Assembly (NCBI GenBank): GCA_013166775.1
Contig: JABLTJ010000004.1
Location: 64,001 to 128,000, forward strand
Length of the DNA: 64,000 bases
DNA from: Promethearchaeati archaeon
GTDB taxonomy: Archaea > Asgardarchaeota > Heimdallarchaeia > Heimdallarchaeales > Heimdallarchaeaceae
Reading direction: 5' to 3'
In this document: positions 42,854 to 52,600 of the stretch, piece after piece
Layout of the letters: every line of letters begins with the position of its first letter
How positions within the stretch are numbered: the stretch's first letter is position 1
Program-made: the position numbers and the translations under genes
Notes under the pieces: generated by a model
Database searches by the model: none
What the model saw: the letters and a program-made list of their open reading frames with translations, nothing else
What the model was told of the DNA's origin: nothing

Positions 42854-45211
42854 CTAATTTACCATTTCTTCTAAGAATTCACTGTACTTAATTAGATTAT
42901 CTTGACAATATCTTCTTATTACCCTTGTATGTGATTTAACGATTAGGTTATTTAGAAACTTTAGTTTCTTATTTTTCTTTATTGTATTCAGAATACCAAC
43001 AACGATTTCAGCTTTTAATCCCTTAGATTTCTCAATGAATTGCTTCCTTGATTTCGCAGTCATTTTAGTTAGCCCTTTAACTATACCATCGACACTATCT
43101 ACACCTAAATAATTTAATGAAGAAATTCCAACCCTAGCATTACCTTCAACTATCTGGTTGACTGTTTCTTGTATTATTTCAATATCCTGAGCAATAGCAA
43201 GGAGAAGTATTAATCGTTCTTTTGCTTTTTTGTTCCTTTCCTTTTGGAAGAATTTCCTCAATGGTTGAATCGCTGATTTTTCCATTTTTTCGATTATTTT
43301 TCGAAGATTATTGAACCATTTATCCTCAGCACTTTTTAGATTAGGAAGAATCAATTCGAGTGTTTTACTTTCCATTTTGCTTAATGCACTTATGGTAGAC
43401 TTTACAAGATGCTGATTTGAAGAAGTTAATTGTTGGGAGAGTTTCTTTACAATGGGAGAACCTATTTTTACTGCAGCATAAATTGAAGCTTCTCTGACCA
43501 ATTCTTTAGATCTCTTCATATTATTAATAATAACATCAATAACGCCTGGATCTTGCAATTCACCTAGAGCTCTTGTTGAAATTTCTGCTATACCGTCATC
43601 ATTATCTTTTGCAGCTTTTATTAATGAAATGAGAGCTCTCTTACTTTTTATTTTTCGTAAAGATTCAACAGCTTTTCGTCTTAATTTAATATTAGGGTCT
43701 GATAAGATTGATGAGAGGATAGGAACTGATTTAGTACCAAGATGAGACAACAAATCACAAGATTTTTCTCTAATTTCTGGATCTATCTCCTTCAAGGATT
43801 TAGTTAATAAATCGAAGATTTCGTCGTCTTTAGATCTTATTTTTCCTTTATGGAGAGCGAATGAATAACCTAGTTCTTGCAGTTCTTCTGATGGGTAGTA
43901 TAGAAATAGTATAATTCCAAGTTTCACACCTTGAGTAAGATTACTTTCAAGAAATCCATCTAGTGCGAGTTCGATATTATCTGTACCAAAATAATGTAAA
44001 ACCTCCACTGCATTTTTCCTAAGTTGTAAGTCATCATCAATCAGTTCTTCAATTAAAACCTTTATTGAGGGAGTGCCTAAAGTGAGTAGAGCTTGAGTAA
44101 CAGCTTCAAGAATCGATGGATTCTTTCCTGCTAGTTGAGTTGTTAATAATCTTATTGCTCCTTCGTAACCATACTTTTGACTCATAACCAGAGTTAAACA
44201 CTGTGCTGCGTTTCTCCTAACATTCCTTTTACCTTTTTGGAGAGCACTCATTAGATAATCATAACTCGATTCACCTATTCTTTTCATAGATTCAATTATG
44301 TAAGGAACGTTTCTATCTTTTTCAAGGGCAGTAATCAAACTTGGAAGTGCTCCATTGCCAATTAAGGCTAGAGACCTTGCAGCATAATACGCAGCGGGAT
44401 CACCCTTTTCAAATTGGTTTACAAGTATCCCAATAGCTTTTTCACTCCCTAGATTCCCTAATGCTTCAATAATAGCTAATTGTGTATCTATAGAGTCCTT
44501 GAAATTTGAGAGTCTCGTGATTAAAACATCAACATGCTTTTGATTATCTAGATGCATCAAAATAATTGAACCATATTTAATATGCTCTTCAACATTGGAA
44601 GTCAGAATTATTTCACGAACTTGCTTTACGAAAAGATACGTAAGTTCAGGAAATTGAGTGATTGTGAGAAGAGTAAGTTCGGTGAAAATAGGATTAGTTT
44701 GCTTTAATCTATAAGAGAGAATTTTCTTTATTTCCTTAGATTGCTCATCAATAAATTGAAAATTAATGAAAGTGTCATCATAATTTGATAAGGAAGAATG
44801 ACAGGTTCTGATGGCAATTTCAGTTAGAGTCGCTAGAACAGGTGTAACTATTTGTGCTTTACTAATAGCAGAAAAAATCTTCTTTGCTTGAAGTGTAGAA
44901 AGTATTTCGAAGAATAATTCAAAACTCTCATCCTTGATTAAATATGTATGAATAATAGGAATAAAATACTGAAGTTTATTGACTATAACAGCTTTTATTA
45001 GATTGTCATGATTTTTAAGATATTCTTGGATTATCTTGTCCGTTGGAATATAATCCGTACTAAATAATAATTTTGTAGCATTTACTCTAACTAGCGTATC
45101 CTTATCAGTTAGAAAATTGATCAATAAATAATAATCTTTAATGTTTTCTAGGCTTATTTTTTCTACTTTTTCTTCTTTCAAGAGGAGTCTTTTGAGCTCT
45201 TCTTCATTCAA
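42854..45211 (-). CDS. HEAT-repeat (alpha-solenoid) protein
   Basis: Repeated LxDxDxxVRxxA..LG units, e.g. LSDPNIKLRRKAVESL, LIDDDLQLRKNAVEVL. Confidence 0.88.
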   Translation of the reverse strand: MNEEELKRLLLKEEKVEKISLENIKDYYLLINFLTDKDTLVRVNATKLLFSTDYIPTDKIIQEYLKNHDNLIKAVIVNKLQYFIPIIHTYLIKDESFELFFEILSTLQAKKIFSAISKAQIVTPVLATLTEIAIRTCHSSLSNYDDTFINFQFIDEQSKEIKKILSYRLKQTNPIFTELTLLTITQFPELTYLFVKQVREIILTSNVEEHIKYGSIILMHLDNQKHVDVLITRLSNFKDSIDTQLAIIEALGNLGSEKAIGILVNQFEKGDPAAYYAARSLALIGNGALPSLITALEKDRNVPYIIESMKRIGESSYDYLMSALQKGKRNVRRNAAQCLTLVMSQKYGYEGAIRLLTTQLAGKNPSILEAVTQALLTLGTPSIKVLIEELIDDDLQLRKNAVEVLHYFGTDNIELALDGFLESNLTQGVKLGIILFLYYPSEELQELGYSFALHKGKIRSKDDEIFDLLTKSLKEIDPEIREKSCDLLSHLGTKSVPILSSILSDPNIKLRRKAVESLRKIKSKRALISLIKAAKDNDDGIAEISTRALGELQDPGVIDVIINNMKRSKELVREASIYAAVKIGSPIVKKLSQQLTSSNQHLVKSTISALSKMESKTLELILPNLKSAEDKWFNNLRKIIEKMEKSAIQPLRKFFQKERNKKAKERLILLLAIAQDIEIIQETVNQIVEGNARVGISSLNYLGVDSVDGIVKGLTKMTAKSRKQFIEKSKGLKAEIVVGILNTIKKNKKLKFLNNLIVKSHTRVIRRYCQDNLIKYSEFLEEMVN

Positions 45212-45798
45212 GTAGTCTGCCCCCTCTGCTTCTTGCGGTACTTAATGAAATCTATAATTCCAGAACCAAGATTCTCAAAAACTTCTTGAACATTTTCTCC
45301 AGTTCTTGCAGAAGTTTCATAGTATTTAACTTTGAATCCTTTAGATTTGTATTTCTTATTTAAATCTTGAACGTATGCTAATGCTTTTTCTTTTACATTT
45401 ACTCGTTTTGTTTTAGAAAGAAGGTCCATTTTGTTACCTAAAACATAGAATGGAACAATACCTCTTTCTGTACCTATTTCTAATTCTTTCACCCATCTAT
45501 CTAAAGTTTTTAGTGTAGAAATTTTCGTAGCGTCAAAAACCATTAATGCACCTAAAGTTCCCCTATAATACAACATACGAACTTTCTCGAAAATTTCTTG
45601 ACCAGCAATGTCCCAGATTTGAAATAAAACTGAATAATCGTAAATTTCTTTTGGTAAAGAAGCAAAATCAGCTCCAATTGTTTCAAGATGTTTTGTGATA
45701 AAACCTTCCCCCAAATACGAACGTCTTAGACTTGTTTTTCCAACCGCTGCTTCTCCTGCTAAGATGACCTTTAAAAATAGTTTTTGACCATAGCTCAC
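45208..45798 (-). CDS. Rab-like small GTPase
   Basis: G1 GEAAVGKTS, G2 TIGADF, G3 WDIAGQE, YYRG, G4 NKMD, G5 SAR. Confidence 0.93.
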   Translation of the reverse strand: MSYGQKLFLKVILAGEAAVGKTSLRRSYLGEGFITKHLETIGADFASLPKEIYDYSVLFQIWDIAGQEIFEKVRMLYYRGTLGALMVFDATKISTLKTLDRWVKELEIGTERGIVPFYVLGNKMDLLSKTKRVNVKEKALAYVQDLNKKYKSKGFKVKYYETSARTGENVQEVFENLGSGIIDFIKYRKKQRGQTT

Positions 45799-48213: not shown

Positions 48214-49623
48214 TTAGATGAAATCTCCTGTTTCAATCTTTTGAGGTAGATAGAAATTTGTAATATATTGTGGATCTCGAGCATTCAGAGCTTGTATTTC
48301 AGCTTTATACCCACTGGAAATTAGAATCTCTAACTGTTCTTTCCATCTTGGTTTTCTTACTACAAATTCCTCTTCTAGCATAAGCTTAGATCTATGAATA
48401 TCTTTGGCAGTCATTTTTAGGAGAGTGCTACTAGGAATATCAAAACCACTTTCTGGAGCTAGATCACTTGGAAGAAGCCCCAACCACTTAATGCTTGGTA
48501 CTGCTAAATGACTAGATTCGAAGCTTAGTGCTTTGCTTCCTACACTATAAACTCTCATGATTTCAAATCCATAGGGATCGGCATCCATAATCGCAAAAAT
48601 AGGGAGCTTCAATTCATCATCTATTTTTTTGAGAAACTGTCTTGTTGCAATATCTGGTTGTCCTTTTGCAGTTATTAGAATACTTGGCACATAATCATAA
48701 AAATGATCTTCTGCTAATCTATTAAAGACAGCATCTTTTTCTATTACTAATACAAATTCTGCATCAGAATCTAAATCTTCTATGTCATCTATATTCGGTG
48801 AAATAGCTTTTCCTGCTCCAATTGCTCTACAATTAATTAAATCACCTTTTTCCTTAAAATCTATGCGACCTACAACTATACCTTTAGAAGATGCACTTAT
48901 GTTGAGTGAGGATCTAGTTACTTGCAACATTGCGCTCAAATCCTCTAATAATGAATCAGAGACAGTTTGCTTCTCAAACGAATTAACATCCATGTAAAAT
49001 ACATCTCTTTTGGTACTATGAATATCTCTGGTAAGAATATCGTGAATAATCCTCATAATGATAGTCATTTGTTCCACAGAGCTTACAGATGCAAGATTAC
49101 GAAATTGTCGTTCAATCATTTGTCTTCCAATTAGAACGAGTTCTTGTTCTTCGTCAAATCCTACATTTGTTCCAGCTCTAGAGGGAATATAAAACGAAGC
49201 TTCAGATGGAGATAGCATTGCCTGTTGAAGAAAAGCCAAAGAGTATTCCACAAGCAAATTGTTGGTTTCTTCAGATGTTTTAGTATCTACATGAGTAACA
49301 CCAAAAGGCATAAAATGATCTAATTTATGTTCAAGTTCTTTACGAACATCTTGAATCTTTTTCAGAGAAACTGCGTTTTTTATACTGATTTTCATTGTTT
49401 CCTTTTGCAAAGGGTATCTTGATAATTTTCGAGTTGATTCCAGTTTGTACCATTTCTTTGCACTTCTGAGAAATAAAACAAAAGATCCTCGCCTAAGATC
49501 AAAGGCTTCTCTAGCCCATGAATACATTTCTCTAACTAAAATTTCTTTATCAAAACTAAATGGTTTTTCCAATGCGGGTATAATTGTTGAGTTTCTAAAT
49601 ATGAAATTAAATTCAGGTGGCAT
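48214..49623 (-). CDS. top6A: DNA topoisomerase VI subunit A with N-terminal ubiquitin-like extension
   Basis: TKRDVFY (catalytic Tyr region), TOPRIM IEKDAVF and DADPYG, KGQPD, KAEIQAL. Confidence 0.93.
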   Translation of the reverse strand: MPPEFNFIFRNSTIIPALEKPFSFDKEILVREMYSWAREAFDLRRGSFVLFLRSAKKWYKLESTRKLSRYPLQKETMKISIKNAVSLKKIQDVRKELEHKLDHFMPFGVTHVDTKTSEETNNLLVEYSLAFLQQAMLSPSEASFYIPSRAGTNVGFDEEQELVLIGRQMIERQFRNLASVSSVEQMTIIMRIIHDILTRDIHSTKRDVFYMDVNSFEKQTVSDSLLEDLSAMLQVTRSSLNISASSKGIVVGRIDFKEKGDLINCRAIGAGKAISPNIDDIEDLDSDAEFVLVIEKDAVFNRLAEDHFYDYVPSILITAKGQPDIATRQFLKKIDDELKLPIFAIMDADPYGFEIMRVYSVGSKALSFESSHLAVPSIKWLGLLPSDLAPESGFDIPSSTLLKMTAKDIHRSKLMLEEEFVVRKPRWKEQLEILISSGYKAEIQALNARDPQYITNFYLPQKIETGDFI

Positions 49624-49625
49624 TT

Positions 49626-52600
49626 TTAATTACCCTCCTTTTTTTGGGTGTTTGAAGATTTCTTAACCGTTGTTGTATTTTTGTTACTTTTGGTCATATC
49701 CAACAAAGTTGTCTGTCTAGCTTTAGCTGATTTTCTATCGGCAGATTTTGTTGTAACTGAAGTTTTTGGTTTTACTGAGGTTGAACCAGCTTTTTTAGGT
49801 GTAGCTTTTTTAGTAACAGGTTTTGAGGTACTAGTTTTCTTAATGACTTTTACTTTCTTAGGTGGAAGTCTGCTTTTTAGGCTCTTGATAGCCATATAAC
49901 TGAGATCTGTTTTCTCATCGAGTTGCGCAGCTGGATAAACTACAAAATCTTTGATGGTGGTAATTCCTAATTGCTTGATTTGCTTAATTACTTCAGGTTT
50001 TATCTCTAAAGTTCCAATGGGTTGTTCAAGTATTCCTATCAGCTTCTTAACATTTGGATCCTTTAACGATGTGGAATTCTTCATCTCTGTATCTGGCATT
50101 AAAAGTGCTTGAAGAGTGGTTATACTACTTCCTTTCAATTGAGCTATATTACCTTCAGTAATATGTGGAAGTGTTTTTCTTATTTCGACTTGATCCTTTT
50201 CAGCTTGCTTGAGAGATTCAGGATTCAATGACGCATAAAGTGATCGAAGATCCTTTACAGGTAGTGTAATTATCTTAGAGAGCTGTTGAACTAGAGTTGC
50301 GAATAAATCCCATAAATTATTGATATTTTTGCTATGCAACAGAAAAACACTCTGAGCATTGATTTTAATCATGTCAGTAAGATAATAAATCGGGGTTTCC
50401 AGAAGTTTTTGTATTCGAGATATTTGAAGTTTATTTAATCTCGAAGTTGAAGCTATGAGTTCTTCTGAGGCTTTCAAATGAGCGATGGTTGTATAACCAG
50501 ATATCTTTAATAATTTCTTTGTGTTTTTATCGAACAAACCTATCTTATCTACAGGATAACTCTTGTTAACCAACGCATCTTTTATCGACAAGAGACTCAA
50601 GGAACTTTGTAATTTCTGTACAATTGTTTGTTCCTGTTCTGTAAGAGACATTTTTACAACTTTTCTTACATCTGGAACAACAATGAAATCAATAACTTGT
50701 ACGATTCCTGCTACTTCTAATTTAGAAATTAATCGTTCTTGATTAACAAACAGATTGATCGGAGCTCTTAGAGCAATAACTAATTCGACAAGTTCTGGCT
50801 CGTAATCTGCGATCTCCGTATTCTCTAGATGTTTAATCAGAGTACCGAAGGATCTAATTTTCTGTTTTCTGAGGAAAGGTGCTAACTCTGAACCGCGTAT
50901 AAAGCTAGACAATCTCTTCTGTTCATCGTCCAGCATTCTTTCCACTTTTGTTGAGGATAATTTAGGTAAAAGATTAGCACAACTCAGTTTATCGCTTTCA
51001 GGTGTAGTTGATTTGCAATAGAGCAATAAATCATAAATATTGACTAGCTTTAATTCTGATACAAGTTTCTGGATATTCTTGGATTGTCTAATAGGTGGTA
51101 ATGAAAGCAATTCTGTTTCTACCATAGAACAAACAGTTTCTGTGAGTTTCCAGAGAGAACTTGTTTTAGCACTAGATTGTCTATTGAAAATTATAGCTTC
51201 TTCAATTGAATAAATAGTGTTACTCTCTAATTGTGATATATTACTTCCACTAAGTAATTCAGAAGGTAGATTCGTCAATTCCTTTTCAAGATCATTTAAA
51301 AGACTAATTGATATATTTCTAAGATTTCTTAGGAATGTCGTTTCTGAGATCTGTTTCTTAATCTTGATACTATCTTCTAGCAATAACTCTCTGATATTTC
51401 TATATGGGAGTTTAGCTACTTGATCGATACTATTTCTAGTAGGAGCTAAGAGAATAGGAGATCTTGATAAAAATGGAACCAATTCCTTGAATCGCTTACT
51501 TATTTTTGAGTGTAGATGCGATTTTGTTTGGTCATAGATTGCAGTTTTATGCTTTTCAAGTAATAGTAAATATTCAATTGTTGAATCTGACATTTCCAAT
51601 TTCTGATCTTTAGATTCAAGATTGAGTATTTGAGATAGGGGTAAACCTTTACTAAAAATGAAATTAATTACAGTACTGATACTATCTCGCTGTTTTTTCT
51701 CCATGGTCATTTTATCTATGCTTGGAGCCAAATATGCAAGGTCTAATATTGATAAGGAAAACTCGGAAGTTGAATCAAAATCTTTCAAATTTAGTTGTTT
51801 AAAGATTTTTATCTTATCCAAGATATAGTTTGGAACTTTCTCAAGTTTTACTTTCTTCTCAAAAAGGTCTACATAAGTCTTGATGTCCTTTTGTTTCAGG
51901 ATGTCTATATCCTTTTTGGAGAATAATTTATTCTCTTTAATTATTGGATGATGACCAATGTTGCCTTCAGTTAATGAATAACGCAGTTTTTCAACTTCAG
52001 TTTGTTTAAGGGAAAGAATTGAAGATAACTCTTTGTTTGTTAATAAATATAAATCTTCAATTGTTTTAATCGATTGGAGTAACCTCTGCCAACTTTTTAT
52101 TGTTACATTAGGGAATAACAATAATTGTATTGGAGTATTCAATCTTCTTTGTATTTTGTTTCCTAAAGCTCTGGATATTGGATAATTTTCTTGTTTCAAA
52201 GAGTAGATTAAATCGTCCATTGTGGAATAATGTTTAAGAGTTTCTTTCTTCGTTTCAGCATCAAAAATCTTAATCTTACTTAGTTGAACTTTTTTGCTAA
52301 CATCTGTTTCTATCTTCTTATATGATAATGATGTTAGTGAAGTAATTATTGCTTCCTTGAATGAAGCAGGAGTCAAATTGGTCCAGAAAGAGCCAGGTTT
52401 GATAATAAGTTCACCAACAGTGAATACTCCTTTCAAGGCAAGATTTTCGGTATCAGACTTCGAAAGAAAAGACAATGAAGAAACAGGATTCTGGAATGAT
52501 TGATTGATTTTGTGTCCTAATATGCTTAATGAATCCTTATTCTGTTCTAAAACAGTGACTAAATCAACAACTGTGTTGACATTAGAGACACTAACCTTCT

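Follow-up and report, generated by a model that had tools for sequence, protein, structure and literature searches.

What is the additional segment at the N-terminus of an archaeal topoisomerase VI (Topo VI) A subunit, and what might it do for the enzyme? The A subunit, Top6A, is homologous to the meiotic enzyme Spo11. The question is raised by a 64,000-nucleotide (nt) stretch of DNA, called the window in the following, from a member of the Heimdallarchaeaceae (contig JABLTJ010000004.1 of assembly GCA_013166775.1, positions 64,001 to 128,000 of the forward strand). Among the archaea, the Heimdallarchaeia, including the Hodarchaeales, are commonly regarded as the nearest relatives of eukaryotes. 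In the window, top6A directly follows the gene of a giant B subunit, Top6B (Table 1). The original prediction, made from the letters of the DNA, had described a Top6A of 469 amino acids (aa) with about 100 additional N-terminal residues and had proposed that these hold a ubiquitin-like domain. Our analysis indicates that residues 1-83 almost certainly form an integral ubiquitin-like (Ubl) beta-grasp domain, as judged from a predicted structure, and that this domain was very likely co-inherited with the giant Top6B.

The fold was approached by structure prediction and structural searches. The extension is present in 33 orthologues of 463-469 aa; 28 of them were aligned and share 43-93% identity with the window protein over residues 1-92. 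Modelling of the domain alone with AlphaFold2 (AF2), based on this 28-orthologue alignment, gave a mean predicted local distance difference test score (pLDDT) of 82.9 and placed strands at residues 4-11, 18-25, 48-54, 57-60 and 77-83 and a helix at residues 30-41. The predicted beta-beta-alpha-beta-beta-(3-10)-beta topology of about 75-85 residues has the beta-grasp order of ubiquitin, and the succession of strands and helix guessed in the original prediction was nearly exact. The same elements were present in the model of full-length Top6A (pLDDT 87.5 overall and 81-93 within the domain), whose predicted template modelling score of 0.81 is uninformative on whether the domain docks on the core. 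With the predicted domain model as query, Foldseek returned 56 matches at E ≤ 0.001 in the PDB, led by ubiquitin, SUMO2, ISG15 and the Ubl domains of TBCE and USP15 (E about 1e-4, template modelling (TM) scores of 0.65-0.77). A comparison with representative structures using VIA-align resulted in Z scores of 10-12 and a root-mean-square deviation (rmsd) of about 2 Å over 75-87 aligned residues, and 50 of the 50 chains among the matches listed were ubiquitin-like folds or carriers of a ubiquitin/SUMO-type unit as tag or partner. For residues 1 to about 85, the proposed beta-grasp fold is thus also the predicted one, with ubiquitin or Ubl domains as the top matches in both searches.

The best structural matches were integral Ubl domains of eukaryotic proteins (TBCE/TBCB, USP11/USP15, NUB1, Dsk2/ubiquilin and SF3A1; Z 10.7-12.0, rmsd 1.7-3.3 Å, TM scores up to 0.76). 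The Top6A domain shares with them the beta-grasp, the absence of a C-terminal di-glycine and a permanent place in the host protein. In contrast to these domains, its host is the catalytic subunit of an archaeal type IIB topoisomerase, the sequence identity is 7-14%, the loop between strands 1 and 2 is longer and a K-K-W hairpin is inserted between strands 3 and 4. No GG, the mark of a conjugatable (type 1) modifier, occurs within residues 1-110, and strand 5 continues straight into the conserved helix 88-97, with the Top6A core behind it, indicating that the domain is integral (type 2) and not a modifier. The designation as a non-cleavable UBL/UBX-like domain in the original prediction therefore stands for the integral Ubl, on the grounds of the missing di-glycine and the fold, and falls for UBX. 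The stretch between strands 3 and 4 reads R53-S54-A55-K56-K57-W58 and has no UBX-type FPR motif, and the UBX family PF00789 gave matches in just 2 of 24 clade members (E ≥ 0.073), under its cut-off.

Following the domain, the full-length model shows a helix at residues 88-97 and a less confident block at residues 101-110 (pLDDT 67). P106, G108 and V109 are invariant among the aligned orthologues, and alignments of the short Asgard Top6A proteins begin near this point. An additional N-terminal helix has been described for Asgard and eukaryal TopoVIA (Brinkmeier et al.; PMC9665070), and helix 88-97 is probably the counterpart of it.

The relation to ubiquitin could also be followed at the sequence level. 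The motif LESTRKLSRYPLQKE of Top6A is identical to LEDGRTLSDYNIQKE of ubiquitin (ubiquitin unit from P0042) at 9 of 15 positions, and its pattern L-E-x-x-R-x-L-S-x-Y-x-[LI]-Q-K-E is found at the equivalent structural position in ubiquitin/SUMO. This match, already noticed in the original prediction, is real but weak when taken by itself: the domain profile matched only ubiquitins among the PDB sequences, but with 4.6 bits per ubiquitin unit, and the low E-values of polyubiquitins arise because the scores of the repeats are summed. Within residues 1-110 of the window protein, the ubiquitin family PF00240 gave no match even at an E-value of 10 (cut-off 25.4 bits), and Pfam as a whole returned only noise (YlbE, E 0.08; eIF-5, E 0.14). 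A whole-genome scan with PF00240 did not recover the Top6A domain either. Besides lacking this match, the window domain differs from ubiquitin and SUMO in having no di-glycine and in not being conjugatable.

Orthologues from across the clade gave a clearer signal. When the clade-wide alignment of the domain was compared with one ubiquitin unit using hhalign, Top6A residues 14-75 were matched to ubiquitin residues 7-64 with a probability of 89% and an E-value of 2e-6. The orthologous domains of Borrarchaeum exceed the gathering cut-offs of PF00240 (31.4 and 29.9 bits; cut-off 25.4) and of Rad60-SLD (PF11976; 33.5 and 32.6 bits; cut-off 23.8), and one further clade member passes the cut-off of the Pfam family Ubiquitin_2. 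The Borrarchaeum domain occupies the same position in an orthologous protein and aligns with the window domain over 87 colinear columns (hhalign, E 1.3e-4); for the Hodarchaeales domain, the corresponding E-value is 1.9e-5. In RefSeq, the long Top6A of Borrarchaeum (WP_287583880.1; P0045) is labelled 'ubiquitin-like protein', and hence the signal was detectable in that orthologue, yet remained uninterpreted. The label mirrors the small N-terminal domain and omits the topoisomerase function; Heimdall-group orthologues that have a source name are mostly called 'hypothetical protein'.

The same genome holds two ubiquitin/E1/E2 clusters outside the window (G000:C27:9779-11616 and G000:C102:21191-27506). 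Each of them consists of a ubiquitin-family gene, a ThiF/E1-like gene and a UQ_con/E2-like gene, and the ubiquitin-like open reading frame (ORF) ends in KGGF in one cluster and in STAG in the other. A recent copy of these ubiquitin genes was rejected as the source of the Top6A domain, as the similarity (hhalign E about 1e-3) is weaker than that to eukaryotic ubiquitin.

The protein that carries the domain has the features of a Top6A. Pfam identified TP6A_N (PF04406) at residues 183-242 (E 5e-20) and Toprim (PF21180) at residues 290-463 (E 3e-58), and NCBIfam matched only models of the Top6A core, all under their equivalog cut-offs. The top match among solved structures was Top6A of S. shibatae (2zbk_A, E 4e-56). 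This alignment spans residues 110-469 and opens with query residue 110 at chain residue 7, so that about 100 N-terminal residues of the window protein are extra, and both the ORF and the alignment agree with the length and the extension claimed beforehand. RDVFY with the catalytic Tyr210 is aligned with RDLYY of 2zbk_A; Y210 as well as the acidic metal-binding Toprim residues E295, D347 and D349 are invariant in the Top6A alignment. Top6A is paired with a GHKL/transducer B subunit, since the first ~530 residues of the Top6B immediately upstream match Top6B cores. With canonical Top6A proteins (2zbk_A; 1d3y_A, M. jannaschii; 2q2e_A, M. mazei) and with the short Asgard Top6A, the window protein has in common the 5Y-CAP tyrosine, the Toprim motif DADPYG and the position behind Top6B in the operon, and its residues 110-469 align end to end with 2zbk_A. 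In contrast to the window protein, none of them carries a folded domain in front of the N-terminal region that binds B, and the B subunits with which they pair measure 510-1241 aa instead of 4170 aa.

Several observations indicate that the N-terminal segment is translated and constrained. The ATG of top6A (49621-49623) is preceded by a GGAGG sequence and begins 2 nt behind the TAA of top6B, a gap that makes the two genes look translationally coupled. In comparisons of the window genome with relatives, the ratio of non-synonymous to synonymous substitution rates (dN/dS) was 0.08-0.17 for residues 2-84 and 0.02-0.04 for the core; the least saturated pair had a dN of 0.031 and a dS of 0.255 for residues 2-84. 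Of the 45 genomes with the domain, 43 have uninterrupted frames of 462-501 aa, and the remaining two frames are shortened, presumably by a contig end. Taken together, the ribosome-binding site, the 2-nt gap, the low dN/dS and the intact frames settle the concern, raised along with the original prediction, that the true start might lie further downstream.

Two side observations concern the reading frame. In one relative (G050; L023:1337-1445, minus strand), the domain is encoded in frame without ATG, GTG or TTG at the expected start, and the frame begins with an Ile codon straight after a stop (…*ISVKIINCINS…), which suggests a non-canonical start codon or a sequencing error. On the plus strand of the window, the ORFs 49445-49666 and 48782-48997 overlap top6A; they are short frames within a well-supported gene.

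To learn about the distribution of the domain, we searched 399 Asgard genomes with the domain profile and found it in 45 of them, in every case where a Top6A frame begins. It is present in each of the four families of the order to which the window belongs (28/30, 1/1, 3/3 and 12/12 genomes, with the window's genome excluded). A search of 1.84 billion representative proteins recovered the domain only at Top6A N-termini, besides matches of the polyubiquitin-repeat type. Using the Top6A core as query, equally long frames (463-506 aa) were found in the Hodarchaeales, a sister family and Borrarchaeum/Sifarchaeia; the remaining listed Asgard Top6A frames have about 390-430 aa where they are not cut by a contig end. 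In a maximum-likelihood tree calculated from the last 370 residues of Top6A, that is with the domain left out, 15 of 15 long proteins fell on one side of a branch with a support of 100/99. The simplest reading of these sequence comparisons is a single gain of the domain, in the Top6A lineage with the giant-arm Top6B. Purifying selection has maintained it in the Heimdallarchaeales, the Hodarchaeales and the sister family as well as in the second Topo VI of Borrarchaeum (Sifarchaeia). Further type IIB paralogues are suggested by the two to three distinct Top6A-like matches in many Asgard genomes that do not belong to the long-Top6A clade (G080-G091 of family f7, and many of families f12 and f31).

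The pairing with Top6B was analyzed in 20 fetched loci and the window. All 12 long Top6A genes with a complete neighbouring top6B adjoin a Top6B of 2190-4304 aa. At two further long-Top6A loci the contig ends first, one of them still showing at least 1035 aa of Top6B. The short Top6A proteins (387-427 aa) with an adjacent Top6B stand beside one of 510-1241 aa (6/6), and for one further short Top6A no Top6B was found beside the gene. The extension and the giant Top6B thus co-occur across genomes, as would be expected for a co-inherited pair. The giant Top6B proteins are colinear with that of the window through at least residue 1100 (up to about 1100-2000), and their C-terminal arm adds 1,700 to 3,800 residues. 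The ~1100-aa Top6B of other Asgard lineages matches the window protein over the core only. These proteins of 1115-1241 aa (L026:1328-4675, L029:15396-18764 and L032:14917-18642) have twice the canonical size, and BLASTP found no similarity between their extra C-terminal halves and the giant Top6B arm.

Borrarchaeum combines both forms. A canonical pair (B 557 aa, A 387 aa) immediately precedes a giant pair (B 2289 aa, A 463 aa), and it is the A subunit of the giant pair that carries the Ubl domain. In Borrarchaeum/Sifarchaeia, two such loci (L018:62-14306 and L020:663-14876) have the two Topo VI operons in tandem on one strand with a stretch of about 3 kb between them; the canonical Top6B measures 557-560 aa and its Top6A 387 aa, the giant Top6B 2289-2294 aa and its Top6A 463-472 aa. 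The two A subunits of the tandem loci are placed on opposite sides of the long/short split of the tree.

A conserved third gene was not found on the Top6B side of the operon across the clades sampled. On the Top6A side, a small GTPase was the only recurrent gene, present in two clades with differing arrangements and orientations: a GTPase-like protein of 183-196 aa is encoded about 1-2.5 kb from the Top6A stop in Heimdallarchaeaceae and Hodarchaeales and is absent from the other sampled clades (Table 1). Its recurrence is probably due to chance because Asgard genomes hold many such GTPases. The lack of a third conserved gene around the operon fits a binding partner of the Ubl domain inside the enzyme.

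Table 1. Coordinates of the Topo VI locus and of recurring neighbouring ORFs (window positions unless a locus is named)
Feature	Position	Strand	Details and basis
Top6A (Spo11 homologue) coding sequence, 469 aa + stop	48214..49623	minus	ORF list, translation, Pfam, 2zbk_A match
Predicted ubiquitin-like beta-grasp domain, residues 1-83 (fold proper 4-83)	49375..49623	minus	AF2, Foldseek, VIA-align, hhalign
Connector, residues 84-110	49294..49374	minus	helix 88-97, then lower-confidence linker with P106-x-G108-V109; full-length AF2, alignment
Canonical Top6A core, residues 111-469	48217..49293	minus	B-binding N-terminal region, 5Y-CAP with Tyr210, Toprim with DADPYG
GGAGG ribosome-binding site	49634..49638	minus	within the last part of top6B, 10 nt upstream of the top6A ATG; sequence reading
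Giant Top6B, 4170 aa	49626..62138	minus	directly upstream of Top6A
Small GTPase-like ORF, window copy	45208-45798	minus	
Small GTPase-like ORF, further copies	L040:2345-2929; L037:6818-7375; L039:1011-1583; L042:862-1413		

What the domain does is a matter of graded possibilities. Solved Topo VI structures (2zbk, 2q2e) show the B transducer gripped at its C-terminal end by the N-terminal region of A, and the Ubl domain is therefore expected at the A-B junction, the point of the core from which the giant arm emerges. There, it may serve as a docking or organising module of the giant holoenzyme. The face equivalent to L8/I44 of ubiquitin would bind the B arm at its base, or a stretch that folds back onto this base, which would fix the geometry of the arm beside the DNA gate. 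The putative binding face would comprise the N11-x-T13-x-x-P16 loop, L50/L52 of strand 3 and the inserted K57-W58 hairpin. Residues that are invariant within the order and seemingly outside the hydrophobic core are indeed N11, T13 and P16 in the loop between strands 1 and 2, L50, L52, K57 and W58. In the hhalign register, L50 corresponds to I44 and L52 to A46 of ubiquitin, and K57-W58 fall into an insertion beside K48; extending this register by strand correspondence would put the N11-P16 loop at the L8 loop. Invariant residues that map by alignment to the canonical binding face of ubiquitin favour a docking role. A functional analogy is offered by human SMCHD1, whose integral N-terminal Ubl stabilises the dimer of a GHKL-ATPase module (PMC6620310), a role in the assembly and not in the signalling of a GHKL-type DNA/chromatin machine. 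However, the SMCHD1 Ubl is part of the ATPase chain and touches the neighbouring ATPase domain, whereas the Ubl of Top6A belongs to the cleavage subunit, far from the GHKL module, and no homology past the shared fold is claimed. We favour the docking or organising role in the giant enzyme as a tentative assignment that falls somewhat short of probable.

Several points weigh against such a role. The position of the conserved residues on the canonical L8/I44 face is deduced from an alignment and not from model coordinates. Of the hydrophobic positions, F51 and L61 alone are nearly invariant when the entire clade is considered; one fixed interface is thus not conserved, and the surface and its partner would need to change together. 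The domain evolves three to five times faster than the catalytic core. The co-occurrence with the giant Top6B is weak evidence for a functional link, since with a single origin even a perfect co-occurrence represents one evolutionary event and not many independent correlations. Finally, the domain is strongly basic, which fits direct DNA contact equally well.

This basicity makes nucleic-acid contact a serious rival, in which a basic Ubl by the DNA gate would mainly extend the surface that binds the G-segment or DNA crossings, or would work together with the Top6B arm. Residues 1-88 have a net charge of +9 and an isoelectric point of 10.2, compared to a charge of -14 for the Top6A core, and only 2% of the 88-residue segments from ORFs of the window are equally basic. 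The net charge is positive in 23 of 24 sampled clade members, and the Ubl of SF3A1 bound to an RNA stem-loop (8id2, Z 11.4) is among the top structural matches. However, the charge is not universal (-4 in P0038 and +1 in one copy of the Borrarchaeum group), and the residues invariant within the order are hydrophobic or aromatic (L50, L52, W58 and P16) and do not form a basic cluster. Moreover, most ubiquitin-like domains bind proteins. We consider a nucleic-acid contact as the main function unlikely, but worth keeping in view.

Alternatively, as suggested in the original prediction, the domain could be a handle for machinery of the ubiquitin type, recruiting Cdc48/p97, the proteasome or a ubiquitin-binding factor, for example for the extraction or degradation of trapped Topo VI cleavage complexes. 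Integral Ubl and UBX domains of eukaryotes commonly recruit such machinery, and the structural neighbours include proteasome-binding Ubls (NUB1, Dsk2 and midnolin) and the UBX domain of UBXD7 (Z 10.7). The two ubiquitin/E1/E2 clusters make this feasible in the genome, and UN_NPL4/UBX families of Pfam match marginally in a few clade members (E 0.002-0.07). Against this, the UBX and NPL4 matches remain under the Pfam cut-offs, the hairpin between strands 3 and 4 has no FPR, and the likeness to UBXD7 is common to all Ubls; the fold alone is no proof of function. A strict tie to the giant Top6B is not predicted by such a handle, the similarity to the genome's own ubiquitins is weak and no conserved adaptor gene lies nearby. 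Recruitment of this kind appears rather improbable, and its most specific version, in which Cdc48 or the proteasome would engage a trapped covalent giant Topo VI via the domain and remove the adduct, must be called doubtful. If true, this handle would be an archaeal, genetically fixed precursor of the pathways by which eukaryotes remove TOP2 and Spo11 adducts in a ubiquitin/SUMO-dependent manner, and it would occur in the archaeal lineages closest to them.

It is equally doubtful that the domain has no specific binding role, being an aid to folding or solubility or a spacer that was fixed by chance with the giant enzyme. It is well known that folds of the ubiquitin type can enhance solubility, conserved surface positions are almost absent at the level of the whole clade, and the domain evolves faster than the core. 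However, no loss was seen in any of the genomes sampled from at least six families, the dN/dS given above indicates real constraint, and N11, T13, P16, E19, K57 and W58, which are invariant within the order, map outside the ubiquitin core by alignment. The idea that the extension lies outside the protein, with a real start at one of the internal Met codons (residues 33, 77 or 105) or as an annotation artefact, was rejected as vanishingly improbable in view of the GGAGG 10 nt ahead of the first ATG and the 2-nt distance to the top6B stop, the stop-free conservation of the whole domain as protein in 45 genomes, a dN/dS far below 1 and a fold prediction of good confidence.

Built-in ubiquitin-like domains in proteins are regarded as a eukaryotic hallmark. 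Our literature search yielded no report of a Top6A or Spo11 with a ubiquitin-like domain, and papers on the diversity of Topo VI/Spo11 (PMC9665070, PMC11302465, PMC8185306) do not mention the domain. That such a domain is fused to an enzyme as central to DNA topology as Topo VI, and is passed on strictly with a partner subunit enlarged four- to eight-fold, suggests that this type IIB topoisomerase has been remodelled. To our knowledge, eukaryotic TopoVIA and Spo11 have not been reported to carry this domain; they would therefore either have lost it or descend from the canonical paralogue, which still stands beside the giant form in Borrarchaeum. In this way, the domain poses an evolutionary question for eukaryotic TopoVIA and Spo11, that of loss versus descent from the canonical paralogue.

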